From Candidatus Moraniibacteriota bacterium (GTDB taxonomy: Bacteria; Patescibacteriota; Minisyncoccia; Moranbacterales; UBA1568), in contig CP064994.1 of NCBI GenBank assembly GCA_016699975.1, positions 496,731 through 552,166 of the forward strand: 55,436 nucleotides of DNA, given 5' to 3'. The notes under the pieces were generated by a model, which had not been told where the DNA came from, searched no databases, and was given only the letters and a program-made list of their open reading frames with translations. Numbering within the stretch: position 1 is the first letter of the stretch; each line of letters opens with the position of its first letter. Shown in pieces: positions 294-18,111 of this stretch. The position numbers and the translations under genes were made by a program.

Positions 294-891
294 TCAAAAA
301 ATTCCTTCGTTATGCGCTTTCTCGAGGAGTATTTTTCGGCCCCGATTAATGAGGGAGGCGACCGTCCCTTTTGGTTTTTCGACAATGTCCATAATTTCTT
401 CGTAGGATTTTTCTTCGAGGAATTTGAGAACGAGTACCTCGCGGTAGAGAATGGGAAGTGACTCAATAAGGCGCGTCATTTTCTCCAGGAGTTCGGCGGT
501 ATCAATTGTTTTTGGGAGATCACCGTTTTCGTAGAAGAAACGGTGGAGATCTTCGGAGTCGATCGTGACTGTGACGGGACGCGAGGACTTTTTTCGGATG
601 GAGTCGATCACGGTGTTGCGACAGATATGATAGATCCACGTCGAGAAAGCGAGATTGCCGTCGAAGTCGTTTAAATTTTTGTAGACCTTAAGAAATGTTT
701 CCTGAAGAATGTCTTCAATATCTTCGTTTGTGGCAAAAGAGATGCGCCGGACATACCTGAAACAGACGGTCCCAGTAGCGCCTTACGAGCGGAGTAAATT
801 CGTCTGGGTCCCGGAGAGATGCCAAAACGAGTTCGGCGTCCGAGGGCTCGTGCGCCACAGGAAACGAAAGCGATGGGTTTTCTTGATTCAT
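294..891 (-). pseudogene. ECF-type sigma-70 family factor, interrupted by a 1-nt frameshift near 759
   Basis: ORF 715..963 carries region 2 start (SDAELVLASLRDPDEFTPLVRRYWDRLF). The frame of ORF 294..611 is open back to 782 and reads RYVRRISFATNEDIEDILQETFLKVYKNLNDFDGNLAFSTWIYHICRNTVIDSIRKK, then region 4 (LPILYREVLVLKFLEEKSYEEIMDIVEKPKGTVASLINRGRKIL). The two frames join as ...DRLF/RYVRR... if one base around 759 is skipped. Confidence 0.75.
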
Positions 892-1116
892 GAGCCGAGG
901 AGAAGAATGCGTTTTTGTTATTCGCAGGGAAAGGTAATACGATGTTTCTTGAGGAGTTTGCACGTCGACACTCGGTCAGCGCGCGGTCTTTCAGTGAGGG
1001 AGTTGCCGCCGGAGTGATCGGGAAATACTCGAGAAATGGATATATACTGTATACAGAGAGTATAACTCGGACAAAAAAACGAAACCGGCTTTTTTATTTT
1101 TGATTTTCACCTGTCT

Positions 1117-1260
1117 ATGATTTCTCCCTTAAATGAAGATCGGGAATCGCAAGAAACGCTCTTTCACGCCTCTGTGGGAAAGTATGCTCTCTCGGAGACG
1201 CTCCGGTTCGAGCTTCGGCCTCTCGGGAGAACGCTTGAGCATCTCAAAAATACAGTCTAT
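1117..1260 (+). pseudogene. cas12a: 5' remnant of a type V-A effector gene (cas12a/cpf1 N-terminal ~45 codons only)
   Basis: Residues 16-45 of ORF 1117..1575 read FHASVGKYALSETLRFELRPLGRTLEHLKN. This matches the hallmark Cas12a N-terminal strand ([23 protein letters not shown]). Similarity stops after ~1255, and the ORF then runs into the start of the next gene. Confidence 0.55.
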
Positions 1261-1489
1261 CGGGACGGAAGAAAGAATTATGATCCCGAACTGAAAAAAA
1301 GAAAATCAAAATATTCCCCGGAACATATTCCGGGGAAATTCATTTCCGTTTCCATGCAAGAGAAGACGAGACAACAAGAGCTCCTACCAATACCTCGAAG
1401 GAAAAGAAGAACAAGAGTTTTTGAAATAAGTTTCCTTGGCATGTTCTTAGTAAGAACGTACCCGTATATCATGCTCACAATTCACACGT

Positions 1490-2158
1490 ATGTCCACACA
1501 CCGAAAAGTGCTCATCCTCTCCCTTTCTCTTCTCCTTGCCACCCTCCTTATGGGCATATGGTTTTTGTTGCCTGAATGGAAACTCTCTCCAGAAAGATTA
1601 GACCCCATGACCATCAAAGAGGCTCCACTCCCGAGGAGGGAAAAGGGAGGTCCTGCCACAAACATCGAAACTTCGAACTGGAAGACCTATCGGAATGAAT
1701 CGTTAAAATTGAGTTTTAAATATCCGAATACGTTTCGATTGGATGAGGTTGCTCGGGAGGATGGACACGTTGTGTCGGTTATGGAATATGATGAAAACAA
1801 GAGGGACTTATATAATAAGCCGATTCCCGGTTACTCTTCTCCTGTTACAATTTCTTATTGGAGAGATCTTAATGATCCCCATTTAGGAGGAGGAGACTGG
1901 GCGGGCAAAAAGCAGTATTCAAATTTTGAAGAGCTTATTGGGGATACTGAACATACCTATATAAAAGTAAAAGGGGAAATGTTTTTTGATAGAACAAAAG
2001 CATATGTTGTTTCATTGCCAGGTTATGATTTCGAGAATGAGGCAATCATGTTTGAATATGCCGGCGGATACTATCAAATAAGTTTTCCCTGGACAAACAA
2101 ACGACTCGATGAAACCCGAAAAAAGGAATTTCTTTCTTCGATAAAACTTCTGGAATAA
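1490..2158 (+). CDS. N-terminally anchored secreted protein, distant member of the local paralog family (P1)
   Basis: 222-aa ORF with TM helix LILSLSLLLATLLMGIWFLL. Carries the family motif NIETSNWKTYRNESLKLSFKYP and the family-typical C-terminus ...FLSSIKLLE. Confidence 0.75.
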   Translation: MSTHRKVLILSLSLLLATLLMGIWFLLPEWKLSPERLDPMTIKEAPLPRREKGGPATNIETSNWKTYRNESLKLSFKYPNTFRLDEVAREDGHVVSVMEYDENKRDLYNKPIPGYSSPVTISYWRDLNDPHLGGGDWAGKKQYSNFEELIGDTEHTYIKVKGEMFFDRTKAYVVSLPGYDFENEAIMFEYAGGYYQISFPWTNKRLDETRKKEFLSSIKLLE

Positions 2159-2236
2159 TATTTTGCAGAATGATATTTTTCATTTCTGCGTTAGCGTCGT
2201 TCATTAATAATTCAAATTGGCTGAAAGGAGCGGAAA

Positions 2237-2392
2237 GTGAAAGTCTTCGCTATATGCAATGTAATCATTCTCTATCTATTTGTGCATGCGGGTTATGCGC
2301 TAGACCAAACATCGACAGGGTTCTATTACCCGATCGGAACAGCGAATTCCGACTCTGCATGTGGTCCGTGTCTGGGAAGAGACAACGAATGA
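2237..2392 (+). pseudogene. Truncated copy of the M23 peptidase gene 5' end (scar A)
   Basis: SD-like AAAGGAG plus GTG. Translation VKVFAICNVIILYLFVHAGYALDQTSTGFYYPIGTANSDSACGPCLGRDNE* parallels MKAFVRFVLVILCLFANASYALDRTGTGFYYPIGTTSFDSKCGTWLGRD of the full gene at 7028. The 5' UTR (2160-2236) is also homologous to 6950-7027. Confidence 0.8.
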
Positions 2393-2448
2393 GAATAGGT
2401 AAAGCGCCAAACTCCTTATTTTATTGCAAAAATTGCAAAAACAAACAA

Positions 2449-2486
2449 TTGACAAAATTCTAGCTTTCTATTTCAATGCTCTTATG
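2449..2486 (+). promoter_or_regulatory. Predicted promoter with leaderless start: TTGACA-17-TTCAAT-6-ATG
   Basis: -35 TTGACA at 2449-2454, 17-nt spacer, -10 TTCAAT at 2472-2477, ATG at 2484. No SD. Part of the conserved module starting at 2389. Confidence 0.6.
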
Positions 2487-3125
2487 TCGAAAAAGATGTT
2501 TACGCTCTCCCTGTCTTTTGTCTTTAGCCTTCTTCTCTTTGGGAGCTGGTTTTTGTTTCGTGAACCACAAAAATCTCCGGAGAGTCAAAACACGCAAAAA
2601 ATAGTAGAGAAAAATTCGCCACAGAATGTGAAAGAGAAAAGCTCAACTGTAAACATCGACACTTCGAACTGGAAGACCTATCGGAATGAAGAATATGGGT
2701 ATTCTCTCAAATTTCCGGCTACAATGAAGCAAACGGATGAGCAGTCATTTGTTGATTATTCTGGGGGCGGTTTTTCCTTCTACTTGATTCCCTATGAACG
2801 TCTTAAAGAAAAAGAACTTATTTCAATTTCAAGAAATGATCTATTGGATTTTAGTTTAGTTCCGTTTATAGAGTCTGGAAATATTGAAACTGTTTTTCAC
2901 GAAAGACGGGGTGATAAATTGAGCATGCTTCTTGTGGAGTATGATTTCAAAAAAGAGCCGCAGAAACATGACATGGAAGCATGGAATGAGGGGAGTATTC
3001 TTGAGGAAGCTTTTTTTCAATGTGGTCCAGATATTTGTGCCATAAGAACTTATTCCGATCAGTTGTCTTCTGAAAAACGAGTTTTGTTTTCTACTCTCCT
3101 TTCCACATTACATTCTATAAAATAG
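2484..3125 (+). CDS. N-terminally anchored secreted protein, cassette paralog P2
   Basis: The in-frame ATG at 2484 gives MSKKMFTLSLSFVFSLLLFGSWFLF (TM helix). Motif NIDTSNWKTYRNEEYGYSLKFP. The track ORF 2424..3125 has an N-terminal read-through extension. Confidence 0.8.
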   Translation: MSKKMFTLSLSFVFSLLLFGSWFLFREPQKSPESQNTQKIVEKNSPQNVKEKSSTVNIDTSNWKTYRNEEYGYSLKFPATMKQTDEQSFVDYSGGGFSFYLIPYERLKEKELISISRNDLLDFSLVPFIESGNIETVFHERRGDKLSMLLVEYDFKKEPQKHDMEAWNEGSILEEAFFQCGPDICAIRTYSDQLSSEKRVLFSTLLSTLHSIK

Positions 3126-3240
3126 TGCCTCACAACAATTCCTGTATCAGTTAGTGAAGCGGGAATCTTGTAGGGCGGTATTTTCTCCTACGCAAAGCAG
3201 ACAAAGAGTTCATTTACAACTCTTTTACAAAGGAGAGAGA

Positions 3241-3397
3241 AATGCGAGTGAGCATACGGTTTCTTTTATGGATGGCCCTCTTTGATTGCAAGTGTTTCAT
3301 ATGCTCTCGATAAGACAGGAACTGGTTTCTTCTATCCAACTGGGACAGCTATTTCGATCAAAAGTGTGGGACCTGGCTTGGAAGAGACAACGAATGA
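3241..3397 (+). pseudogene. Truncated, frameshifted copy of the M23 peptidase gene 5' end (scar B)
   Basis: One frame reads ASVSYALDKTGTGFFYPTGTA and another reads FDQKCGTWLGRDNE*. The breakpoint (LGRD/NE*) is the same as in scar A, and the conserved module follows directly (3394). Confidence 0.75.
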
Positions 3398-3439
3398 GAA
3401 CAGGTAAAGCACCAAACTGCTTATTGGAAAAACAAACGA

Positions 3440-3477
3440 CTGACAAAACTCTAGCTTTCTATTTCAATGCTTTTATG
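3440..3477 (+). promoter_or_regulatory. Predicted promoter with leaderless start: CTGACA-17-TTCAAT-6-ATG
   Basis: Same module as at 2449, with a -35 variant CTGACA (3440-3445), -10 at 3463-3468 and ATG at 3475. Confidence 0.5.
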
Positions 3478-4118
3478 CCGAAAAACACCATTATTTCTAT
3501 CGCCTTTATTTCTGCAATCATCTTTTTTATTGGAGCGTATCTTGCCCTTTTTTCTCAGAAAGAAAACAATTTGATTGTTGAACAACATTCAATAAAACAA
3601 AATGTTCCCTCCAAGATTAACGATACTCGAGAGGAAGAGAAGAAAGATATACGGGATCTTCTCGATGGGAACTATATTCTTTCTTCAGTTGACATGGAAA
3701 ATTGGCAGGTATATCAGAACAAGGAAGCGGGATTTGAAGTAAAAATACCAAAAGATTGGTTCTGCGGAAGAATAGCTCTTGAACTTGATACAAAGAGAGG
3801 AGTCGCTTGTTTCCCCAAAGAGGATCTTGATGCTTATTACGCGGGAACCTTGCGTGAGGACAACATAGTGATGATAAATCTTCCGGATTTGGAAAAAATT
3901 TATCAGAGTACTTTTAAAGAAAGGCTGCTTTCTCAAAAAAAGCTGGTTCAAAGATTTATAGTCTTAGTATAGATAAAAATGATGCTGTATTCGTGGTTGA
4001 TTCAAATAATGTGAATACAGTCATTGATCAATTAGGTGCTTGGAATTTGGTCTTTTACCCTTCTGTAAAGAAGTCTATTATCGATGGATTTCTTCAAAGC
4101 TTCAAAATGACTTCTTGA
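3475..4118 (+). CDS. N-terminally anchored secreted protein, cassette paralog P3 (apparent -1 frameshift in an A7 run at 3935-3941)
   Basis: MPKNTIISIAFISAIIFFIGAYLALF (TM) and motif VDMENWQVYQNKEAGFEVKIP. The frame ends at 3972, but the adjacent frame continues AGSKIYSLSIDKNDAVFVV...SIIDGFLQSFKMTS* (stop 4116-4118), which has the family-typical C-terminus. An A8 run would restore a single ORF. Confidence 0.7.
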
Positions 4119-4214
4119 TCTTCTACATAGAGAGAAAATTTCTCTGTATGTAAGGGGTCTGGAATTTTTTATGGCCTGTTTTTTTGTACCTTGAAAATTC
4201 GGAGGAAAGAAAAT

Positions 4215-4433
4215 ATGTTTGTTCGATTCTGGATGATACTCATGTCGAATATTTCTTGGTCAAGTTATATAATACTTTCACCAACCCCCTCGCTGTCATC
4301 CTCAGCAGTTCCTACTTCAACTGTTTTTCGCCTGTATTCCCCTACACTCAAGCCTCATCAACCCGAAAGGCGTGCTGGGATACAGAGCTCTAAGACTCTT
4401 TGTATTGGTTTTTTCTCCTATTCTCATTCATAA
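4215..4433 (+). pseudogene. Heavily degraded M23-gene remnant (scar C)
   Basis: MFVRFWMILM... resembles MKAFVRFVLVIL. In another frame, ...RKACWDTEL echoes NRKVCWDTKNS from the CHAP/M23 shared module. It occupies the same position as scars A and B, in front of the third conserved module. Confidence 0.5.
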
Positions 4434-4444
4434 ATGAGAATAGG
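4417..4444. repeat. Perfect 12-bp inverted repeat (CCTATTCTCATT-CATA-AATGAGAATAGG) at the left edge of the third conserved module
   Basis: Read directly from the sequence. The right arm is the first 12 nt of the conserved module. Confidence 0.9.
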
Positions 4445-4484
4445 TAAAGTATCAAACTGCTTATTTTATTGCAGAAACAAACGA

Positions 4485-4522
4485 TTGACAAAACTCTATC
4501 TTTCTATTTCAATGCTTTTATG
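4485..4522 (+). promoter_or_regulatory. Predicted promoter with leaderless start: TTGACA-17-TTCAAT-6-ATG
   Basis: -35 at 4485-4490, -10 at 4508-4513, ATG at 4520. Confidence 0.6.
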
Positions 4523-5269
4523 TCGAAAAAAATGCTCATTTTTGCAGCGCTTCTCTTTTCTCTCGCTCTTCTTGGCGGAGTTTTGTTGTTCCGATCTGGA
4601 ATTCTTCAGGAGCAAGCAAAAACAGTTCAATCTGTACCAGAAGAGAGTGGAAACAAAGGAAAGAAAGAAAAGCCAGACGCAGAAGAAAAAACAAGACAGT
4701 TTGTCACTGATGTTGATCCGAATGTGAGTCACTGGCAGACAAAAGAGACAAAAACTTTTACGATTAAGTTCCCGAAAGAATGGCACTGGATAGAATTTCT
4801 TGGATACGATGACCAAGGTAGCGGTGGTTCCCATGTTATATCAAATAATCCAAATTTTCCCCTAAAAGAATATTCAGATTTAAGCATATTTCCTAATCGA
4901 AGTTATAAGCTTGTTTTGAAAAATAACACAGAGATTGTGATCGATTTTAATATTTATGATTATGGACCAAACACTTCCAATTTTGGGAATCCTCTGGATC
5001 CCGTTAGTGACTCAAATAAATTTTTTTATCTAGTTCCAAGAATTAATTCAACTGCTGAGTGTGAATCCTTACTAGTACAAGAGGGCAATAGTACTAACAT
5101 GACATCTGTCTATTGTTCTATTGATCAAGAAAACCACCAAAGGGATATTGTATACTATAGGGCTAGTAAGATGTTTTCTCTTATGCTTACGCTGAAATCA
5201 ACGGATCAACTATCTATTGACTCTGCCATCTTAAAGGACATTGCGGAGAGTTTTGTGCTCAAGTACTAA
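4520..5269 (+). CDS. N-terminally anchored secreted protein, cassette paralog P4
   Basis: MSKKMLIFAALLFSLALLGGVLLF (TM), a Lys/Glu-rich linker, and motif SHWQTKETKTFTIKFPKEW. The track ORF 4469..5269 has a read-through extension. Confidence 0.8.
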   Translation: MSKKMLIFAALLFSLALLGGVLLFRSGILQEQAKTVQSVPEESGNKGKKEKPDAEEKTRQFVTDVDPNVSHWQTKETKTFTIKFPKEWHWIEFLGYDDQGSGGSHVISNNPNFPLKEYSDLSIFPNRSYKLVLKNNTEIVIDFNIYDYGPNTSNFGNPLDPVSDSNKFFYLVPRINSTAECESLLVQEGNSTNMTSVYCSIDQENHQRDIVYYRASKMFSLMLTLKSTDQLSIDSAILKDIAESFVLKY

Positions 5270-5383
5270 GCATTCATTGACCTCTTCTCGATTGTACAAC
5301 TATAGATCCTTGTGCGATCTATGAAGCGGTTAAACCGTTTCTCAAAGGATATTTGTTCTTTGACAACTTGCGAGGTAAATGTG

Positions 5384-6025
5384 ATGAGAAAGACAATCTT
5401 TGTTTTTCTATTCTTGTTGCTTTTTGAGGCAGGTGCTTATGCTGGTGATCTGACTTGTTATGGATATACGTCCACAACGGATCATTTTTCCTGCAATATT
5501 TCGCCTGCAAATTCTGGAAACTGCGTGTGGTGGGCGGTGTACAAGCGTCCGGACATTGCGGAAAAGATTTCCGGAAGCGGATGGGATGGAGGTCAGTGGT
5601 ATGACAAATTGAGAGATATTGGATTTTTCGTTGGCTCCGTTCCAAAAGTCGGGGCTATCGTGGAGTTTTCAAAGCCGGGGCATGAAGCCTATGTGGAAAG
5701 CGTTCTCGATGATGGAGCATTTACTGTTTCGGAAATGGATGCAACGGGAAGTTTTGGAAGTGGTGGAGTATATAATGCCACCTACTCTCCAAATTCCGAT
5801 GGAACCTACCATCGGAATTCCGGATCGCAAAAATGGACCCTCAATGGCTTCATCTATTCCTTCAACTCCGGTCCCTCAATCCGCCTCTGTGCCCAAATCT
5901 CGGCAAATCGAAAGGTATGCTGGGACACGAAGAACTCGGTGGACAAGAGGTGCGAATCCGGTTCCGACTGCATCATCTACGATAATGCGACCAAGTGGCA
6001 GTTTCGAATACTATTATTTATCTAG
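5384..6025 (+). CDS. Secreted CHAP-domain cell-wall hydrolase (amidase/peptidase)
   Basis: Signal peptide MRKTIFVFLFLLLFEAGAYA. CHAP Cys motif GNCVWWAVYKRP and His motif GHEAYVESV. The C-terminal Cys-rich module FNSGPSIRLCAQISANRKVCWDTKNSVDKRCESGSD is shared with the M23 protein. Confidence 0.85.
   Translation: MRKTIFVFLFLLLFEAGAYAGDLTCYGYTSTTDHFSCNISPANSGNCVWWAVYKRPDIAEKISGSGWDGGQWYDKLRDIGFFVGSVPKVGAIVEFSKPGHEAYVESVLDDGAFTVSEMDATGSFGSGGVYNATYSPNSDGTYHRNSGSQKWTLNGFIYSFNSGPSIRLCAQISANRKVCWDTKNSVDKRCESGSDCIIYDNATKWQFRILLFI
5861..5970 (+). repeat. 110-nt segment nearly identical to 7610-7719 (copy 1, inside the CHAP gene)
   Basis: Manual alignment shows 3 mismatches in 110 nt, all synonymous. 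Confidence 0.9.
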
Positions 6026-6109
6026 AGGTTATTTTTTTGACGTTTCATTCTGTTTTCAATTTGAAAACAGATAGAGTGTCAAACATGCTTCTTATAGAAA
6101 AAGGTACTC

Positions 6110-6147
6110 TTGACAGTTTTGATTTCATTTGATAAATTTTTCCTATG
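6110..6147 (+). promoter_or_regulatory. Predicted promoter with leaderless start: TTGACA-17-TAAATT-6-ATG
   Basis: -35 at 6110-6115, -10 at 6133-6138, ATG at 6145. The upstream GTGTCAAACATGCTTCTTAT is a diverged version of the conserved module. Confidence 0.6.
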
Positions 6148-6858
6148 AACAAAAAAGCTCTCATTTTCGCCACCTTTCTTATTCTCACCGGTCTTGGTGG
6201 GTGGTTTCTGCTTCACAAGCAGAGAAGTATTCAAAATGTGCCGAAACAATTGCCCGTAGCTTCGCAACAGCCGGTGCAGGTAGTGGAAAAGCCACAAGGA
6301 GTTCCGGCAACAGTTCCTGGTTCCACTCTTCAGCAGCCTGCTACCCAAAGCGAGATCGAGAGCATTAAGGATTTGATTGATGGGGAATATACCTTTACGC
6401 CGATCGATACGACTAACTGGCAAACCTACCGAAATGAGGAATTGGGGTTTGAGGTGAAGATACCGAAAAATTGGGAGATGCGCGAACTGTACAGGGAGGA
6501 AAACAAAAGTATTGATATATGGTTCAGCCAAAAAGGAAAATGGTATAAGTTTGAAGGAGGAAATGAGAATGCAATCATTATAGGTATTTCTTTTAAGACA
6601 AATCCATTTTTTCAATTTTCTGAACCTATATTGAAGTTGTGGAAAGCTAGCTATAATATTTCTATTAAGCGAGCTGTGATTAATGGCTCGCCACTATATT
6701 ATTACAATGGTTTTGGTGAGGGAATAATGACCACAGCTTCTTTTCCGAAAGATTATTCATTTGATTTGTCCTCGAGCCTTATATTGGATACATATCCAGA
6801 TGTGAGGCGGGTTCTTCGTGGGATGATCCAAACAGTGAAGTTTGATGGCATAAACTAG
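6145..6858 (+). CDS. N-terminally anchored secreted protein, paralog P5
   Basis: MNKKALIFATFLILTGLGGWFLL (TM) and motif IDTTNWQTYRNEELGFEVKIPKNW. Confidence 0.8.
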   Translation: MNKKALIFATFLILTGLGGWFLLHKQRSIQNVPKQLPVASQQPVQVVEKPQGVPATVPGSTLQQPATQSEIESIKDLIDGEYTFTPIDTTNWQTYRNEELGFEVKIPKNWEMRELYREENKSIDIWFSQKGKWYKFEGGNENAIIIGISFKTNPFFQFSEPILKLWKASYNISIKRAVINGSPLYYYNGFGEGIMTTASFPKDYSFDLSSSLILDTYPDVRRVLRGMIQTVKFDGIN

Positions 6859-7027
6859 AAATATATAGATTGATAGTTTGAATGTTTTTCAAATAGTTTC
6901 TTGCAATAATTTCTTCGCAATGTATTTAGTATTTACTACGAATACGAAGAAATCTTGCAGGATGGTATTTTCATCTCTGCGCTAAAGTAGTTCGTTAATA
7001 ACCAAACTCGACCGAAAGGAAAGAGAA

Positions 7028-9154
7028 ATGAAAGCGTTTGTCAGGTTTGTTTTGGTGATTCTGTGCCTATTCGCGAATGCGAGCTATGCACTTGATCGGA
7101 CAGGGACTGGATTCTACTATCCGATTGGAACGACAAGTTTCGATTCCAAGTGTGGCACATGGCTCGGAAGAGATACTGCCAATGGTGGTTGCTATTTCGA
7201 TGGGCTCTATCACGTTGGCGTCGATATGATGACGGGAAGCACAGATGTTGACGTCTATGCGATTGCGGATGGCAAAGTCATTTATGTCGATGCTGGTGTG
7301 GATTCATGGGGTACTGGAAACTGTGCACTTTTCATCCAGCACAAGAAGCAAGGCGGAAATGATTTTATAGCGGTGTATGGACATTTGGCATGTTCGACGA
7401 TTCCGTCGCTCAATTCAGATGTCCTTGCTGGTCATTCGATTGGGAAAACCGGTCGTTATGATATTGGCGGTATTCATCTTCACTTCGCCATTCATGATGG
7501 ACCATGGGACAATATGGCAAAAAGTGGATGGGGAAGAATGTCGAATTCCAAATGGCCGAGCACGAATACCCTCACCGACCCCATTGCTTTTATCCGCAAC
7601 AATTCCCCCTTCAACTCCGGCCCCTCAATCCGCCTCTGCGCCCAAATCTCGGCAAATCGAAAGGTCTGCTGGGACACGAAGAACTCGGTGGACAAGAGGT
7701 GCGAATCCGGTTCCGACTGGACTATTCTCGACAACCAAAGCAAATGGCGATACCCCGCGACGCAGTCAGTCTGCTCGTCGACTGGGTGTTACCGTTCGAC
7801 ATCCGTTCTCGATTTCTTCATGAGGCCGGCGTATGCAGCGGCAATTGATGGCTGCGCCTCCCAAGAAACCGGTACCGGATATGGCGGCTCGGGTCCCTAT
7901 CCGACACCAGCCGATCCGGAAGAGTACGGTTCTCCCTCGTCGTCGGACCTCCCGAAATTGGTCACCGCCGGAACATCGAGTTCCGCGCCCAATCTCGAAG
8001 CGTCCGTTGATATTGAGAAGGACAAAGAACCGGATTCGAACGCATATGTCCGCGTCGGAGACCTTTACTGTGGCGTGAGAGCGAAGAATACGACCAGCGT
8101 CTCTATCGGCTCCTTCAAGAACAAGTGCATCCTCTACGATGGCAAGAAGGCGGGCAACGATCCGCCGGTCACGCTTGATTCGAAGACGGTGGATGGACTT
8201 GGGGGTGGAGACAAAGAAACGACGCATCACGCTTTTACGATTCGTGATCCCGGCTACTACACGCTCTACGGATGTGTGAATACCGGGAGTAGTCCGCCAA
8301 AGGAGAAGAGCATATCCGATAACTGCGATACGAAGACGTTCCAGGCATACAGCATTCCGGATGTGTATGTTCAGAGACTCTCCCTCCAAGGAGGAACCGA
8401 GTTTCTTCCGGGGTCAACGGTTACCATTGTTGCCGACTTCGGCAATACCGGAGACGACTTTCATGCGGGCAAGAACCGACGGATGACCGTGACTGCCGAA
8501 CTTTCGGGCTGTGTCTCTTCTCGGATGATGGATACGACCGATATCGACGAAGATGTGCTTCGTCACGGAGACAATGACCGCACCAAGTCATTTTCCTTCA
8601 TGCTTCCTCTTGCGGCGACGGGTATATGTACGGTCACCGTTATTGCGGATCCGGAAGGAGAACTCTTGCAAACACCCAACAAGGAAGAAAACCGCGGGAA
8701 CAACCGGAAATCGATCACCTTCCAAGTGACCGAGCCAACACCTCCCGCCCCACAAGTCCCCGTCATTTCTGTGACCAACGTGACGTTCATAAACGGGAGT
8801 CATGTATACACAACGGAAAAGAAGGATATTTCCATTGAAGTCAAAAATTCCGGGAACGCCGCCTCTCTCCCGATGACGGGCAGGATGTTCTACACGCCCA
8901 TTGCCGGAGGACAAGATACATCAATCGGAACATTTTCGATTGGGGCTATACCTGCAGGAGGCACGACAACCGGAATCATTCCGGAGGTTCTCTTTGCGGG
9001 AAGCGGGGAGATGACCACGACGGTGTGTTTCGACAGCATTCCCAAATGTTGGGACGGAGGAAATGTGTATGTCGATACGGTTCAATCGCCACCCGGTGGC
9101 GAAGATGAAGACGGTTCAACTATAATGAGGTTGTACCGAGGAATGATGCAATAA
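7028..9154 (+). CDS. Secreted M23-family peptidase with Cys-rich module and long repetitive Ig-like (possibly CARDB-type) C-terminal region
   Basis: Signal peptide. M23 motifs are HVGVDM, YGHL and GGIHLHFAIHD. Then the shared FNSGPSIRLCAQ...CESGSD module and a Pro-rich linker. Then ~400 aa of repetitive beta-rich sequence (e.g. LPGSTVTIVADFGNTGDD, DISIEVKNSGNAAS) that resembles CARDB-type adhesion domains. SD AAGGAAAG sits upstream. Confidence 0.85.
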   Translation: MKAFVRFVLVILCLFANASYALDRTGTGFYYPIGTTSFDSKCGTWLGRDTANGGCYFDGLYHVGVDMMTGSTDVDVYAIADGKVIYVDAGVDSWGTGNCALFIQHKKQGGNDFIAVYGHLACSTIPSLNSDVLAGHSIGKTGRYDIGGIHLHFAIHDGPWDNMAKSGWGRMSNSKWPSTNTLTDPIAFIRNNSPFNSGPSIRLCAQISANRKVCWDTKNSVDKRCESGSDWTILDNQSKWRYPATQSVCSSTGCYRSTSVLDFFMRPAYAAAIDGCASQETGTGYGGSGPYPTPADPEEYGSPSSSDLPKLVTAGTSSSAPNLEASVDIEKDKEPDSNAYVRVGDLYCGVRAKNTTSVSIGSFKNKCILYDGKKAGNDPPVTLDSKTVDGLGGGDKETTHHAFTIRDPGYYTLYGCVNTGSSPPKEKSISDNCDTKTFQAYSIPDVYVQRLSLQGGTEFLPGSTVTIVADFGNTGDDFHAGKNRRMTVTAELSGCVSSRMMDTTDIDEDVLRHGDNDRTKSFSFMLPLAATGICTVTVIADPEGELLQTPNKEENRGNNRKSITFQVTEPTPPAPQVPVISVTNVTFINGSHVYTTEKKDISIEVKNSGNAASLPMTGRMFYTPIAGGQDTSIGTFSIGAIPAGGTTTGIIPEVLFAGSGEMTTTVCFDSIPKCWDGGNVYVDTVQSPPGGEDEDGSTIMRLYRGMMQ
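7610..7719 (+). repeat. 110-nt segment nearly identical to 5861-5970 (copy 2, inside the M23 gene)
   Basis: See the copy 1 entry. Confidence 0.9.
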
Positions 9155-9176: not shown

Positions 9177-9548
9177 ATGATGAAAAATAATGAAATCGTC
9201 AAAAAATTGGTGGCATCCCTCGTGTTCTTTGGTGGGATAGTGTGTGCCCCTGCCACTTTTGCCGCTCATGTCTGCCATACTCCAGGTCCCGGATCATTCA
9301 TGGAAGAAGATCATTCTGGAAACCGTTTTGTTGTCTGGGGTGTTTCTGGCATAACGATCCACAATGGCCTGTGGATTTCCAAGGAAGATCCGAAGGGGAG
9401 AGCATTTGCCGACTCTACTCGAATTATTCTGAGGAGGGCACAAGAGAAGGGGCTCACGGTCCACATTCGCTATGGCGATACCGATGGAAGTATTTGGTCG
9501 GTATCGGATCCTATGACCATAGCCCTGTGCCTTCAGCAAGCACCATAA
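9177..9548 (+). CDS. Small secreted protein of unknown function
   Basis: SD AGAGGAG 6 nt upstream. Signal peptide LVASLVFFGGIVCAPATFAA. 123 aa, and followed by an intrinsic terminator. Confidence 0.65.
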   Translation: MMKNNEIVKKLVASLVFFGGIVCAPATFAAHVCHTPGPGSFMEEDHSGNRFVVWGVSGITIHNGLWISKEDPKGRAFADSTRIILRRAQEKGLTVHIRYGDTDGSIWSVSDPMTIALCLQQAP

Positions 9549-9944: not shown

Positions 9945-11047
9945 GTGGTATGGGTGAGTTCAAGAATTTAATGCCCCTTTTCCAGTACCCTGGCAAAAAC
10001 TTCATTCGGCGTCAAATAGTTAAGCGCTTTCCTCGGTCGATTGTTGAGTTTGTCCTGAACTGACCGAACTTCTTTTTGGGAAATTTTATCAAACGGGCAT
10101 TTCTTCGGAAAATACTCTCGTAACAATCCATTCAAGTTTTCCACACCTCCTTTCTGCCAACTTTTGTAGGTATCGCAGAAGTAGGAAGGAAGAGAAAGTT
10201 TTTGTTTCGTTTCTCCGTGCAAAACATTCTCCGTTCCATTATCTCTCGTAATACTTCTCCTCAATTGCTGCGGAAGCCGAGAGAAATGTCCCTGTATCGC
10301 TCGTTCGCTTTCGACCGCTGTTTTGTTTGGAACTTTCTTTAATCGGCATAGCTTCATTTTTCGCTCGTACTGTACCGAGAGTACTGACTTCTGTTTTGAG
10401 AATATCACGGAATCGGTTTCCCAGTCTCCAAAGTGTGTACGCTTGGTAATGACCGCGGGTCTTTCGTGAATGGGTATTCTATCCGGAATCGTCTCTTTTC
10501 GCGGTTTTCGAGAGAACTTTGGTCGTCTCCGCTTCTGTTTTCGTCGCAGATGTTTGTACCATCCGCCGACCCTTCCTTCTCCGCGGTAAATGTAATCATA
10601 GATGGATTCGTAACTTATCGAGGTATCCGTACACGAGGAAAGATTTTTCGGAGGAGATGTTTTCAACCGGCCGGCTATCTGCTCCGGTGAATGTCCCTTC
10701 AGGAGTTCGCTTTCGACAAACTTTTTCAGTTTCTCGTTTTGCCATTTTTCCAGTTTTCTTTTGTTGGTATTTTTCTTTCGTCTTTCCGCATACGCTTCAG
10801 CTCGGATGGCAACATAGGGAAGGTGCGGACTCGAATTTCTTCGTATCTCTCGCTTGATGACGGAGTAATCTCTTCCAAGTTTCTCCGCGATCCATGTTTT
10901 CTTTTTCTTCATGCGGAGAAAGCTTTCGATTCGCTCTCGTTCAAAGAAGGTTATGGACGTTCCTTTTGGCATATTCATAGCGTTTTTGGAAGTTAACGCC
11001 GGAGTATACCAGAAAAGGGGCTTCGGGGTTTGAATTCACCATGCCTT
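9945..11047 (-). mobile_element. IS30-family insertion sequence (boundaries approximate)
   Basis: Single transposase ORF. Imperfect terminal inverted repeats: GGTATGGGTGAGTTCAAGAA (about 9948-9967) versus the reverse complement of 11026-11045, GGCATGGTGAATTCAAACCC. Confidence 0.7.
9968..10978 (-). CDS. IS30-family DDE transposase
   Basis: 336 aa. N-terminal HTH (ITFFERERIESFL, TWIAEKLGRDYSVIKREIRRN). Catalytic-region motifs GDWETD, ITRDNGTEN and SWQKGGVENLNGLLREYFPK. Confidence 0.9.
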   Translation of the reverse strand: MNMPKGTSITFFERERIESFLRMKKKKTWIAEKLGRDYSVIKREIRRNSSPHLPYVAIRAEAYAERRKKNTNKRKLEKWQNEKLKKFVESELLKGHSPEQIAGRLKTSPPKNLSSCTDTSISYESIYDYIYRGEGRVGGWYKHLRRKQKRRRPKFSRKPRKETIPDRIPIHERPAVITKRTHFGDWETDSVIFSKQKSVLSVQYERKMKLCRLKKVPNKTAVESERAIQGHFSRLPQQLRRSITRDNGTENVLHGETKQKLSLPSYFCDTYKSWQKGGVENLNGLLREYFPKKCPFDKISQKEVRSVQDKLNNRPRKALNYLTPNEVFARVLEKGH

Positions 11048-13830: not shown

Positions 13831-15078
13831 ATGTTTCGACGAGGAGTGCAATCGCTTACCATGGCGGCGAGGAATTTGGCAGCGACCAAAGTGCGGACGT
13901 TTCTCACGGTCCTTGGCATCGTGATTGGGATCGCTTCGGTGTTTCTCGTGATGTCGATCGGGCGGTCGGTGCAAGAATTCATCGTGGGACAAATTCGTGA
14001 TGTCGGTTCCAACTTGGTGGGAATTTTGCCGGGTGCCTCCGATCCCAAGGGGCCGCCCGCTTCGGTCTTTGGCATTGTCACTACCACATTCACGAACGAG
14101 GATCTCGATGCGATCCTTGCGAAGGGCCGGATACCGAATATCGTGGCGGGGTCGGGATACGTGAGCGGATCAGCAAATGCTGTTTTCGGTCGACAATCGG
14201 CCGAAGTCTCGTATCAGGGTGTGTCCGCTTCGCTTCCTGAGGTCGAAAATATTCCGCTTCGTGGGGGGCGGTTTTTCTCCGAGGAAGAGGCAACAAGTCG
14301 GAGTCGAGTCGCGGTTCTTGGAGCGACGCGCGCTCGTGATCTTTTTGGAAACGCCGATCCGATCGGCAAACGATTCTCACTCAAAGATGTCAGTTTCACA
14401 GTGATTGGCGTGTTGGAAGAAAAAGGCAGTACGGGATTTTCGAGTATCGATACGAATATTTTCGTACCGCTCGAGACAGCGCAGAAACTCCTTCTCGGAA
14501 TTGATTACTTGAATTTGGCGCGCGTCAAAGTGGATGAAGAAAAAAATATTCCTGCGGTAGAGGTGGCGGTGCGAGAGATTTTGCGTGATCGACATGGACT
14601 CAAAAAGGCAGAGCCCGATGATTTCTCTGTTCGCAATACGGTGGAAGCACTTTCGGTACTGAAGAACATTACCAATATCCTTACGTTCTTTCTTGTGTTT
14701 GTGGCAGGCATCTCCCTCATTGTGGGTGGGGTTGGGATTATGAATGTAATGTTGATTGCTCTAAAGCAGCGAGTTCGCGAGGTGGGGCTCAGAAAGGCGG
14801 TTGGTGCCCGAGACGGCGACATTTTGCTCCAGTTTTTATTGGAGGCAATTTTTTTGTCGCTCTTAGGAGGCGCATTCGGATTTTTGGTGGGTATTCTTCT
14901 TACCTTTCTTTCTGCGGTTCTCATACGCTCAGCGGGGTACGAGTGGGAATTTTTTCTTACGCTTCCTTCTGCGCTCGTCGCTTTTTTGGTTTCGTTTGTG
15001 GTGGGCGTGTTCTTCGGGCTCTATCCGGCACGCCGCGCCGCGCGCATTTCTCCTATGGAAGCGCTTCGATATGAGTGA
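13831..15078 (+). CDS. ABC transporter permease, MacB/FtsX family
   Basis: 415 aa. N-terminal TM (RTFLTVLGIVIGIASV), a large extracytoplasmic domain, and a C-terminal FtsX-type 3-TM bundle (GGVGIMNVMLIALKQRVREVGLRKAVGA). Confidence 0.9.
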   Translation: MFRRGVQSLTMAARNLAATKVRTFLTVLGIVIGIASVFLVMSIGRSVQEFIVGQIRDVGSNLVGILPGASDPKGPPASVFGIVTTTFTNEDLDAILAKGRIPNIVAGSGYVSGSANAVFGRQSAEVSYQGVSASLPEVENIPLRGGRFFSEEEATSRSRVAVLGATRARDLFGNADPIGKRFSLKDVSFTVIGVLEEKGSTGFSSIDTNIFVPLETAQKLLLGIDYLNLARVKVDEEKNIPAVEVAVREILRDRHGLKKAEPDDFSVRNTVEALSVLKNITNILTFFLVFVAGISLIVGGVGIMNVMLIALKQRVREVGLRKAVGARDGDILLQFLLEAIFLSLLGGAFGFLVGILLTFLSAVLIRSAGYEWEFFLTLPSALVAFLVSFVVGVFFGLYPARRAARISPMEALRYE

Positions 15079-15093
15079 TCGTATTCTCTTCGT

Positions 15094-16347
15094 ATGCATG
15101 AACTCTTCCTCCCGCTTCAATTCGCGCTCAAGAATCTCTTTGGAAATTTGGGGAGAACGCTCCTCACATTGTTTGGCATTGTGATCGGAACGGTTGCCGT
15201 TCTCACGATCGCTTCGGCGGGAGATGCGGTCGAGCGATATGTGATGGATCAGGTGGAGAGTTTCGGAGGGAATGCCATTCAAATCGAAGTCAAGGTTCCT
15301 TCGGCGGCACATATTTCGAGTGAGAATTCGGGCGGCATTGCAAAGGGAATCCGCATTACGACTCTCACGAAAGACGATGCCGAAGCGATTGCGAAGCTGC
15401 CGAATGTTGAGGCGTGGTACGCAGGGAATATCGGGCAGGCACTTTCGAGTTATCGGGAAACGAGCAAGCAGATATTTTTTCTGGGAGCGACCGCGGGTGC
15501 GCCGAAAGTCGATAAAAACATTGTCCTCACGGAGGGCGCCTTCTATACCGAGGAGGATGATCGGGGAGCAGCAGAAGTGGTTGTTTTGGGATCGAATATT
15601 CGGAACGCATTTTTTGGTTCGGGTCCGGCGGTTGGAAAATCCATTCGCATCAAAGGGCAGAGTTATCGCGTGGTGGGCGTGTTAGAGGAGCGGGGCACGG
15701 CGGGATTTTTGAATTTCGACGATTTCGTTTATATTCCACTTGAAACGCTGCAGAAAAAAATTCTCGGAATACACCACGCCACGTTTATTACGGTAACCGC
15801 AAAAGACGAAGCGAGTGTTCCTGGTTTGGCGATCGACATTGATCGGCTCCTTCGTGATCGTCACGACATTCGAAAAGTGGGAGAAGAAGATTACTCGGTT
15901 ATGAGCGTGAAGGAGACGCAGGAGCTGGTGGCGTCCATCTTTGGGGCGGTTCGCATTCTTCTTATTGCGCTTGCCTCGATATCGCTTGTCGTAGGAGGGA
16001 TTGGTATTATGAATGTGCTCTTCGTATCGGTTGCGGAACGCACGTCGGAAATCGGACTCCGGAAAGCAGTTGGTGCGCGTCCCAAAGATATCTTGCGGCA
16101 GTTTCTGTTTGAGTCTTTGCTCGTCGCGCTTATTGGCGGGGCAATTGGTATCGCGCTTTCGATCGGCATTCTTTTCGGTGCGTTTCGTATGGCGGCATCG
16201 TTCGGGTTTCCGCTCGACTTTGTAATCTCCTTGAAAAATATTGGAATCGCACTTCTTTTTTCACTGTTGACCGGAGTGTTGTTCGGCGTGTCTCCCGCCT
16301 GGAAGGCTTCGCGTATCGACCCTATCAAGGCGATACGCGAAGGATAA
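15094..16347 (+). CDS. ABC transporter permease, MacB/FtsX family (second copy)
   Basis: 417 aa with the same architecture (GGIGIMNVLFVSVAERTSEIGLRKAVGA). Confidence 0.9.
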   Translation: MHELFLPLQFALKNLFGNLGRTLLTLFGIVIGTVAVLTIASAGDAVERYVMDQVESFGGNAIQIEVKVPSAAHISSENSGGIAKGIRITTLTKDDAEAIAKLPNVEAWYAGNIGQALSSYRETSKQIFFLGATAGAPKVDKNIVLTEGAFYTEEDDRGAAEVVVLGSNIRNAFFGSGPAVGKSIRIKGQSYRVVGVLEERGTAGFLNFDDFVYIPLETLQKKILGIHHATFITVTAKDEASVPGLAIDIDRLLRDRHDIRKVGEEDYSVMSVKETQELVASIFGAVRILLIALASISLVVGGIGIMNVLFVSVAERTSEIGLRKAVGARPKDILRQFLFESLLVALIGGAIGIALSIGILFGAFRMAASFGFPLDFVISLKNIGIALLFSLLTGVLFGVSPAWKASRIDPIKAIREG

Positions 16348-18060: not shown

Positions 18061-18089
18061 TTGCCGAGGGGTCGGAAACCTCTTATACT
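18061..18089 (+). promoter_or_regulatory. Predicted secD promoter: TTGCCG-17-TATACT
   Basis: -35 at 18061-18066, -10 at 18084-18089, 22 nt before the ATG at 18112. Confidence 0.45.
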
Positions 18090-18111
18090 GGGGCCACTTA
18101 GCGCTTCGAAT

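Follow-up and report, generated by a model that had tools for sequence, protein, structure and literature searches.

Results

An array of partner genes and lysin fragments precedes an intact lysin gene

We analyzed a 55,436-nucleotide (nt) stretch of contig CP064994.1 (assembly GCA_016699975.1, Candidatus Moraniibacteriota), referred to here as the window and numbered from its first letter. It contains a locus in which tandem genes for membrane-anchored proteins (partner genes) are interleaved with fragments of genes for a lysin, a predicted secreted peptidoglycan hydrolase, and are followed by an intact lysin gene with an M23 peptidase domain. The order of the array is 0-A-B-C-(CHAP stub)-E-M23, and a repeat search gave a regular unit spacing of 991–1045 nt. 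The GC content is 36–38% at 1.5–7.0 kb (the partner array), against ~50% in the rest of the window and ~52% in the lysin gene, which is consistent with imported or fast-turnover DNA. We compared the locus with contigs of relatives, numbered L001–L030, using the window as the reference, and the comparisons point to a mosaic assembled from blocks that cross gene boundaries. The closest relatives of the locus are metagenome-assembled genomes (MAGs) labeled Candidatus Moraniibacteriota and one labeled Bdellovibrionales; the wider partner-protein family, with at least 344 proteins, has its members in Patescibacteria, among them Moraniibacteriota, Falkowbacteria, and Vogelbacteria. The features of the locus, all on the forward (+) strand, are as follows.

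1490–2158 (+), gene 0: first member of the array, with an N-terminal transmembrane (TM) anchor, a linker, an NWKTYRNE motif, and a type-0 body
1660–1699 (+), NW-motif anchor, copy 1: 40-nt patch 98% identical to 2651–2690 within a context of ~66% identity (gene 0 versus gene A)
2153–2387 (+), scar A: 5′ untranslated region (UTR) of an M23 lysin allele together with its first 50 codons; contains an in-frame 51-codon open reading frame (ORF) at 2237–2392
2388–2483 (+), module A: TTGACA-N17-TTCAAT, 6 nt, ATG; includes a 9-nt duplication; putative promoter
2484–3125 (+), gene A: type-A body; in L003/L009 and L015–17, orthologs immediately precede intact M23 genes
3164–3392 (+), scar B: 5′ UTR and ~50 codons of an L015-like M23 allele; junction as in scar A
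3393–3474 (+), module B: 14 nt shorter than module A
3475–4118 (+), gene B: type-B body; frameshifted here, with the ORF stopping at 3972 and the remainder in the frame of 3993–4118
4198–4390 (+), scar C: M23 relic with an internal deletion, ending in the Cys-rich linker; possible remnant of a ribosome-binding site and signal peptide at 4198–4245 (weak)
4409–4519 (+), module C: includes ~25 nt of native upstream sequence missing from modules A and B
4520–5269 (+), gene C: type-C body; 43 homologs, not counting the window's own protein, with identities as low as 32%
5384–6025 (+), displaced CHAP domain with a linker copy (5859–5999), cut off from the lysin C-terminal region
6033–6144 (+), diverged module homolog: 64–68% identical to modules B and C, with a promoter-like site TTGACA-N17-TAAATT at 6110–6138
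6145–6858 (+), gene E: type-E body; partner of the intact lysin; orthologs lie upstream of M23 in L002, L012, L013, L027, and L030
6946–9154 (+), intact lysin gene: 5′ UTR (6946–7027), signal peptide, M23 domain, Cys-rich linker (7608–7748), and CARDB-containing C-terminal region; coding sequence 7028–9154

A sharply bounded module precedes three of the partner genes

The repeat search placed the starts of the conserved modules at 2388, 3393, and 4433 (spacing 1005 and 1040 nt). A 31-nt core of the module occurs exactly three times in the window, with no occurrence expected by chance, and modules A, B, and C are 90–91% identical in pairwise gapped comparisons. Copy A contains an extra 9-nt ATTGCAAAA, a duplication. 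The limits of the conserved block are sharp: in a three-way alignment it runs from ~2368 (A versus B) or 2388 (versus C) to ~2500, which corresponds to the ATG and the first five codons, and identity is 88–93% within the block and at most 60% on both flanks. A preliminary description of this DNA had recognized three ~1-kb units with such modules and a 9-nt tandem duplication that distinguishes copies A and C, had placed 1490–2158 and 6145–6858 at the edges of the array as family members, and had expected the modules to be more alike than the divergence of the gene bodies would suggest; all of this is borne out. Module C extends ~25 nt to the left of AATGAGAA, and 4409–4490 aligns to 6033–6115, upstream of gene E. 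This leftward homology indicates that the module is the native upstream region of the family, which in the A and B copies has been truncated by the junction that those copies share.

The module is probably the promoter of a leaderless or near-leaderless mRNA, as judged from its sequence. We base the promoter assignment on its homology to the region upstream of gene E, where a site matching the consensus at 10 of 12 positions has the same geometry, and the geometry itself (TTGACA-N17-TTCAAT, 6 nt, ATG) implies a leaderless transcript. Weighing against a promoter role, a consensus promoter scan did not report the module promoters, and the −10 element TTCAAT is non-canonical. AAAGGAG-like (Shine-Dalgarno-like) ribosome-binding sites are kept in the lysin genes and in scars A and B, and the partner genes have none. 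With its strong ribosome-binding site and no promoter match, the lysin gene is probably co-transcribed with its partner gene. We also considered whether the module encodes an N-terminal extension of the partner protein that starts at an upstream TTG (2424 or 4469). This was rejected because the copies differ in the 17 codons concerned by ~5 nonsynonymous and 2 synonymous changes and because homologs start at MN/SKK.

The lysin is modular, and its relics come from other alleles

The intact lysin appears to be a modular Sec-secreted peptidoglycan hydrolase composed of a signal peptide, an exchangeable M23 or CHAP domain, a Cys-rich linker, and a CARDB-type region. Its M23 domain scores 37.3 bits against PF01551 (cut-off 28.7) and carries the HxxxD and HxH metal-binding motifs as YHVGVD and HLHF; the CARDB match scores 28.5 bits. 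The gene at 5384–6025 scores 42.4 bits against the CHAP family PF05257 (cut-off 26) and contains NCVWWA and GHEAYVE, which we take, from general knowledge of the family, to hold the catalytic Cys and His residues. Its linker copy (5859–5999) and that of the lysin (7608–7748) are each 141 nt long and 89% identical. The link between the two genes is made explicit by L022 and L023, which come from two sequencing runs. These contigs correspond to window positions 4498–5970 (85% identity) fused to 7618–8701 (90%), so that CHAP runs on through the linker into the C-terminal region that belongs to M23 in the window. They differ from the window by a 1.65-kb segment with its junction in the linker; relative to them, the window has an extra CHAP tail, module E, gene E, and M23 domain between the two linker copies. 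The C-terminal regions that carry CHAP and M23 are 92.5% identical (lysin residues 198–558, 361 residues, versus the C-terminal part of the L022 CHAP lysin). The enzymatic domain is thus exchangeable, and the variable end of the protein is the N-terminal one, the opposite of a classical polymorphic toxin.

Scar A aligns to the 5′ region of the lysin gene (2153–2382 to 6946–7173, 68% identity, E = 5e-27), as does scar B (3164–3387 to 6951–7173, 66%, E = 3e-19), and the two share a junction in which GGAAGAGACAACG is followed directly by AATGAGAA. The M23 reading is open in frame over the 51 codons of scar A, and the ORF list and sequence show that scar B can be read as M23 only with at least two frame changes. 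Scar C is different. Its significant alignment (4271–4390 to 7565–7686, 66%, E = 8e-10) covers the end of the M23 domain and continues into the Cys-rich linker (NTLTDP...CWDT), and 4198–4245 shows a weak, non-significant resemblance to a ribosome-binding site and signal peptide. The preliminary description had traced all three scars to 6950–7190. It was right about scars A and B, including their reading frames and common breakpoint, and wrong about scar C, which it took to be the M23 5′ end in badly decayed form, broken at the equivalent position.

It had also treated the scars as copies of the resident M23 gene, and the comparisons do not support this origin. Scar A differs from the resident gene mostly at synonymous positions (proportions of synonymous and nonsynonymous differences, pS 0.80 and pN 0.23), a pattern that points to divergence under selection. 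For scar B taken together with the 80 nt upstream of it, identity is 85% to the M23 5′ region of L015/L017 and 70% to that of the resident gene. Against the M23 5′ ends of the window, L002, and L003, scars A and B are 49–67% identical, which is indecisive; a signal is obtained only with L015/L017. Because scar B is closer to L015/L017 and the divergence of scar A is mostly synonymous, the scars appear to be relics of other, once-functional lysin alleles. Such stubs may not be universal in arrays of this kind, since the ~300-nt spacer between tandem genes in L013 contains no obvious lysin stub by reading; self-comparison of that locus gave only a shared 5′ coding block, and the spacer was not aligned directly with a lysin 5′ end.

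The partner proteins have discrete, conserved body types

The five partner proteins of the window share 20–39% overall amino-acid identity, and their invariant columns are confined to the N-terminus, which contains the TM segment, and to the W..K.P motif (NW..Y.N...F..K.P). Beyond the motif the bodies show DNA similarity no higher than shuffled controls (z < 1), so the earlier statement that only the N-terminus and the NW motif can be aligned holds. The N-terminus and linker of gene 0 are 61–70% identical to those of gene A (z = 10–16). The bodies had been called hypervariable. We find instead discrete, old types, conserved across distant genomes and, by their substitution patterns, under purifying selection: the ratio of nonsynonymous to synonymous rates (dN/dS) is 0.17 for type A (window versus L015), 0.26–0.32 for type C, and 0.11 for type E, values that come from pairwise comparisons in which the orphan branch is not isolated. 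The bodies are therefore not hypervariable by mutation. Gene B is frameshifted by an A7 run at 3935–3941, and L014, which is 99.4% identical, has A8 and an intact ORF; the difference could reflect slipped-strand (phase) variation, recent pseudogenization, or a sequencing error.

In an AlphaFold2 model of the type-E protein, a TM helix and a disordered stalk lead to an alpha/beta domain, for which the predicted local distance difference test (pLDDT) score is ~95–98 over residues 80–237. When this model was compared with the Protein Data Bank (PDB) using Foldseek, the ten best matches were of the PsbP/CyanoP type (probability 1.0, target-normalized template-modeling score 0.44–0.54). The W.TY.N...GF...P..W motif forms the strands E93–97, E102–106, and E110–118, which are the first strands of the PsbP-like domain. 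The model thus predicts a PsbP-type alpha/beta fold for type E, the one type for which the fold comparison gave this result. By profile comparison, homology between types C and E spans the entire domain (hhalign probability 97%, 17% identity). The type-A model, built from a five-sequence alignment, has a pLDDT of 41, which makes a PsbP-like fold tentative for types A, B, and 0, and the hhalign alignment of type A with type E is confined to the N-terminus and motif. Modeling of the bodies, which the preliminary description had proposed, was therefore informative for type E and failed for type A.

The type-E domain model and the position of the motif on its first strands resemble PsbP, CyanoP, and Mog1-type proteins (PF01789, PF18933); unlike PsbP proteins, the partner has no link to photosystem II, is TM-anchored, and is paired with a lysin. 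No window protein reaches the gathering score of PF18933 (PsbP_2): gene 0 scores 17.3 bits (E = 0.005) against a cut-off of 27, and the other four proteins give no match. The family is matched by some relatives in the wider partner family. No NCBIfam family covers the partner proteins, and a profile search found no sequence relatives of them in the PDB. We picture the partner as an outward-facing membrane protein in which a TM helix and a low-complexity linker would carry a domain of PsbP-like fold.

Body type follows the catalytic class of the lysin

In nearly every locus examined, the partner gene lies directly upstream of a secreted lysin gene or one paralog away from it; in L018, a transposase sits between the two. 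Other genomes generally have one family gene by itself immediately upstream of the lysin. The body types are distributed as follows.

Type E: L002, L012, L013, L027, L030, and the window; M23 downstream
Type A: L003/L009 and L015–17; M23 downstream
Type B: L010; M23 downstream
Type C: L022/23, L024, L025, L026, L028/29, and the window; CHAP downstream
Another body type: L019–21; a different CHAP lysin downstream

Body type follows catalytic class without exception in ~16 loci (C with CHAP; A, B, and E with M23), in lineages that reach down to 33–38% identity and are not phylogenetically independent. The correspondence suggests that the anchored protein is a partner of the lysin rather than a free-standing surface antigen. 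Neither this relationship nor the membership of the CHAP gene and Cys-rich linker in the same system had been noticed in the preliminary description. The strict pairing, the co-transfer of partner and lysin segments described below, and the retention of intact upstream copies with a promoter-like module together suggest that the partner works with the catalytic domain of its lysin, to which it presumably binds.

Strain variants expose the recombining blocks

The segment 2651–3379, which runs from the NW motif to M23 codon ~46 and comprises body A and scar B, matches the gene body, intergenic region, and M23 5′ end of L015 (a member of the L015/L017 lineage) at 75–92% per 60-column window and ~83% on average. 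Upstream of 2651, the module and N-terminus are only 40–62% identical to L015, and at the other end similarity ceases ~15 nt before the junction common to scars A and B. Because body A with scar B resembles L015/L017 and because scar A differs mainly synonymously from the resident gene, the units appear to descend from different, long-diverged functional gene-lysin pairs.

L014, from another sample, corresponds to window positions 306–1699 (96.6% identity) fused to 2651–4087 (99.4%). It lacks exactly one 991-nt unit, its junction falls within the 40-nt NW patch, and the result is a hybrid ORF that joins the N-terminus of gene 0 to body A. L014 also contains body A, scar B, module B, and gene B in succession, which is independent support for their adjacency in the array. 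Between L009 and L010, the stretch from the N-terminus to the motif is 79% identical and the intergenic and M23 regions are 87% identical, and the bodies are unrelated. L012 and L026 carry internal or tandem repeats of the motif block (95% and 86% identity, respectively). The locus thus shows the features reported for lpl- and esaG-type arrays: tandem paralogs with short similar blocks, copy-number differences between close strains that are joined in those blocks, and mosaic adjacent segments. Mosaicism was judged from jumps in segment identity (40–62% to 75–92% for L015; 96.6% versus 99.4% for L014) rather than by formal tests of phylogenetic incongruence.

Two points weigh against this use of the variants. 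The L014 and L022 differences present two states only, from which the direction, loss or gain, cannot be read. Short metagenome contigs could also be chimeric at repeats, yet the repeat in L014 is only 40 nt long, and L022 and L023 come from different runs. At the level of sequence, the comparisons demonstrate a mosaic structure, anchors at its block boundaries, strain-level loss or gain of units, and a catalytic-domain swap. The preliminary view of the locus as a recombination-driven mosaic rather than a set of simply decaying duplicates is upheld by the module, whose identity far exceeds that of its flanks, by L014, and by the body swap between L009 and L010, and the copy-number polymorphism that it foresaw is seen in L014. 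The unequal crossing-over of a single ancestral unit that it proposed was correct as to recombination and change in copy number; one unit does not suffice, as the units come from diverged gene-lysin pairs.

The in-frame and tandem repeats in L012 and L026 deserve description. At 1111–2316, L012 encodes one 401-amino-acid ORF with two PsbP-like bodies upstream of an M23 gene, each body preceded by a 148-nt stalk and NW-motif block (1254–1401 and 1788–1935, 94.6% identical); this double-body ORF reads as an in-frame product of recombination at the NW-motif anchor. At 4001–5688 of L026, an unrelated Patescibacteria contig, there are two tandem type-C genes with a 187-nt block, 86% identical, around an NW-type motif; a 45-nt copy of the intergenic sequence found before the CHAP-CARDB lysin is likewise common to both genes. 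The pattern of array plus relic is therefore not unique to the window.

Discussion

A proposed mechanism of module displacement

We propose that the evolving entity at this locus is not the gene but a unit made up of the partner body, the intergenic region, and the lysin's 5′ part or catalytic domain. Four anchors would bound the unit and serve as substrates for homologous recombination: the promoter/start-codon module; the D-T-S-N-W-K-T-Y-R-N-E motif, with which the PsbP-like domain would begin; the conserved stretch of ~50 codons that opens the lysin gene (...CGTWLGRD); and the Cys-rich linker. Crossovers between units of one genome, and with diverged alleles of other strains, would add, delete, or replace units. 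Each displacement would strand the old partner gene, together with a stub of the old lysin, upstream of the current pair, and would in this way produce the order seen in the window. The junction shared by scars A and B would go back to a single illegitimate event that fused M23 codon ~50 with the native upstream region; it would then have been propagated, with the cassettes to its left exchanged later. We consider this recombinational displacement of modules likely on the evidence of the sequences compared. A simple version of it falls short: in genes A, B, and C, the segments that encode the N-terminal TM helix and the linker are only 62–74% identical though they adjoin a module of ~90% identity, so that the history of the array requires more events than a simple model provides.

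The function of the partner

Self-protection is the role that we prefer for the partner, though we put it forward tentatively and rate it at somewhat below an even chance: the partner would confer immunity to its lysin, and the retained upstream genes would be orphan immunity genes against the lysins of related strains. Three observations weigh against specific immunity. The M23 regions of L009 and L010 are 87% identical in nucleotide sequence, and their partner bodies, A and B, are unrelated; M23 of the window matches M23 of L015 at 72% identity over 589 amino acids, yet the adjacent partners are of types E and A, respectively; and in L003 and L015 a type-A partner stands beside lysins with quite different C-terminal regions. 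Co-variation thus holds for catalytic class but breaks down on a finer scale, where M23 domains that resemble each other are accompanied by partners of type A, B, or E. A broader proposal, which we regard as doubtful, is that the locus represents a previously undescribed, mirror-image polymorphic lysin system of Patescibacteria. In such a system, the N-terminal M23 or CHAP domain of a Sec-secreted bacteriolysin would be swapped together with the upstream leaderless gene for an anchored PsbP-fold immunity protein, displaced modules would pile up as expressed orphan immunity genes, and the setting would be conflict between related episymbionts or between episymbiont and host.

The same finer-level observation, near-identical M23 domains beside unrelated bodies, is what would be expected if the anchored proteins were free-standing surface proteins (adhesins, host-recognition proteins, or phage-receptor decoys) diversified by recombination under frequency-dependent selection, with the stubs as incidental homology arms; surface-protein diversification was the function proposed in the preliminary description. 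The outward-facing, TM-anchored architecture with its long low-complexity stalk suits such proteins, as do the discrete old types shuffled between strains and the coexistence of several types, each with its own promoter-like module; the Mycobacterium tuberculosis adhesin Apa, which has a PsbP-like fold, is among the Foldseek matches. We nevertheless regard this explanation as unlikely. It does not account for the position of the partner beside a secreted lysin in nearly every locus examined or for the agreement of body type with catalytic class in those loci, and the swapped unit includes the lysin catalytic domain, a co-inheritance that is unexpected for a free-standing antigen.

Synteny and pairing fit equally with a positive role, in which the partner would assist the lysin as a cofactor specific for its catalytic class, whether by tethering it to the membrane, activating it, or targeting it, and the upstream units would be decaying, functionless relics. 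M23/LytM-type hydrolases are commonly under the control of partner proteins, gene B is frameshifted here, and all of the lysin remnants are inactivated. What makes a cofactor unlikely in our estimation is the state of the orphans: genes 0, A, and C have uninterrupted ORFs, dN/dS is 0.17–0.32 for types A and C (pairwise, as above), a promoter/start block of ~90% identity is kept in three orphan units, gene B is intact in the sister strain, and expressed cofactors of lost enzymes would bring no obvious benefit.

Plain tandem duplication of a unit of module, gene, and M23 start, followed by mutation in place with no further recombination or import, would explain the regular spacing and the identical junction of scars A and B, but it is a very remote prospect given that the bodies have no DNA similarity while adjacent non-coding and pseudogene segments are 63–91% identical, that scar B resembles the foreign L015/L017 allele more than the resident one, that the divergence of scar A is mostly synonymous, and that scar C and the CHAP stub have other breakpoints. 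Equally hard to credit is an assembly artifact, in which alleles of co-occurring strains were falsely strung in tandem or the variant contigs are chimeric: all of the sequences are metagenome-derived and repeats of 40–140 nt lie at the variant junctions, but L014, an independent assembly of another sample, reproduces the order from body A to gene B at 99.4% identity, L022 and L023 agree, the scar-module junction sequence is found in two separate settings, the source contig has a length of 1.05 Mb, and tandem arrays of the family are found in unrelated genomes as well (L013, L026).

Two dedicated diversification mechanisms were considered and rejected. For a diversity-generating retroelement, the repeat search found no pair of template and variable repeats, and the bodies differ throughout, not only at adenines. 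No reverse transcriptase is present among the interpreted ORFs of at least 200 amino acids at 1–11 kb (the five array genes, CHAP, M23, an IS30-like transposase, and a split sigma factor gene), a set to which the specific scan was limited, leaving aside shorter or overlapping ORFs and the rest of the window. In silent-cassette antigenic variation (pilE/pilS, vlsE), conserved flanks enclose divergent cassettes and recombination creates the variation. Those systems rely on one expression site that receives sequence from promoterless, truncated cassettes; each unit here possesses a promoter-like module, a start codon, and a full-length ORF of its own, which excludes a mechanism of the pilS/vls type.

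Relation to known systems

In Vibrio cholerae's type VI secretion system (T6SS), incoming effector-immunity modules replace the resident effector, and the old immunity genes stay behind as orphans (Kirchberger et al., 2017; PMC5361080). Such orphans bear a close resemblance to active pairs found in other strains, and the mosaic arises by homologous recombination without dedicated integration sites (PMC5361080). Similarly, body A with scar B resembles the active L015 pair, and a CHAP module has apparently been displaced by a module of gene E and M23. The arrangement here is mirrored: the partner lies upstream, the catalytic domain that varies is the N-terminal one, and orphans accumulate 5′ of the active pair. 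A T6SS is also lacking, a Sec signal peptide marks the lysin, the partner has a TM anchor and a predicted PsbP fold, and its immunity role is putative.

In the lpl cluster of Staphylococcus aureus, recombination at a conserved intragenic block shuffles gene halves and alters copy number, and the unit spans adjacent genes (Tsuru and Kobayashi, 2008; PMC2568036). The NW-motif anchor and the cassette at 2651–3379 are comparable. Whereas neighbors in the lpl cluster are all paralogs of one family, the downstream partner here is another gene, the lysin, or its stub, and there are four anchors, one of which is probably a promoter. The esaG and tipC strings of immunity genes for type VII secretion systems in Firmicutes consist of non-identical tandem paralogs with short blocks of high similarity, between which recombination leads to gene loss or expansion in close strains (Garrett et al., 2022; PMC9484751). 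The unit difference between L014 and the window is of this kind. The protein families and secretion route are different, the esaG and tipC strings have no interleaved stubs of toxin genes, and their immunity function has been shown experimentally, in contrast to the sequence-based proposal made here.

Polymorphic toxins such as those of the contact-dependent inhibition (CDI) and Rhs systems combine a constant secreted part with exchangeable enzymatic domains; an adjacent small gene travels along, and cassettes that have been displaced retain part of the conserved sequence (Zhang et al., 2012; PMC3482391). In these toxins the C-terminus is variable and the immunity gene lies downstream, whereas here the N-terminus is variable and the partner lies upstream. 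Only two catalytic classes (M23 and CHAP) are seen here, with several partner types per class. The proposed use of lysin stubs as homology arms and of the module as an anchor, as well as the host phylum, are further differences from the known systems. By analogy, then, the recombination process appears to match known cases, and the arrangement resembles toxin/immunity arrays in reversed order and with different proteins. A search of the full-text literature returned these analogous systems and no description of the partner family or of the locus in Patescibacteria.

Patescibacteria, or candidate phyla radiation, genomes are ~1 Mb in size, and ~0.5% of such a genome is given over here to one recombining locus around a secreted wall-degrading enzyme. 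To our knowledge, almost nothing is known of the molecules that Patescibacteria use on their hosts or on each other, and the locus is a concrete candidate for a system of conflict or host interaction. It also provides a clean natural example of an evolutionary unit that crosses gene boundaries, with four mapped anchors and strain-level intermediates, and it is evidence for homologous recombination and allele import in natural Moraniibacteriota-like populations. If the partner does confer immunity, the PsbP-fold family would constitute new proteinaceous inhibitors of peptidoglycan hydrolases. For annotation there is a warning: orphan partner genes, lysin stubs, and hybrid ORFs are easily miscalled, as in the 175-amino-acid call for the L014 hybrid gene.

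Surroundings of the locus

The window is chromosomal, with genes for aminoacyl-tRNA synthetases, SecDF, GatB, serine hydroxymethyltransferase, and envelope glycosyltransferases, and the record that holds the window's own proteins is a contig of 1,048,819 bp. No tRNA genes were found in the window, and no Rfam family reached its gathering threshold there. A gene for an extracytoplasmic function (ECF)-type sigma factor (294–963, − strand) adjoins the array; an extra T at 758 splits it into two ORFs, and in L014 it is an intact ORF of 195 amino acids. Immediately 3′ of the lysin gene, 9177–9548 encodes a small secreted protein of 123 amino acids with a signal peptide and no Pfam match, in a region with 77% nucleotide identity in L001. 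The IS30-like transposase (9968–10978, − strand; HTH_38 and a weak rve_3 match) lies 0.8 kb downstream of the lysin. In L018 (CP064975.1), a complete Moraniibacteriota genome, the homologous M23-CARDB lysin is interrupted by two Transposase_mut insertion-sequence copies.

One MAG (binchicken_co128_378) is the source of both L001 and L002. L001 begins inside a lysin whose C-terminal half is 83% identical to that of the window, and L002 has a complete M23 lysin with another C-terminal region; the contig break within the lysin suggests strain mixtures or repeats at the locus. The Bdellovibrionales label of this MAG looks doubtful, because Patescibacteria account for the wider family and for the remaining close relatives of the locus.

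Two further features lie downstream. At 13831–16347 are two tandem genes for MacB-type permeases (MacB_PCD and FtsX; 415 and 417 amino acids). The SecD protein (18061–19824) contains a PpiC-type peptidyl-prolyl isomerase (rotamase) domain at residues ~160–248, between the first P1 segment and the P1 head, an unusual fusion in which a foldase is joined to an accessory subunit of the translocon.

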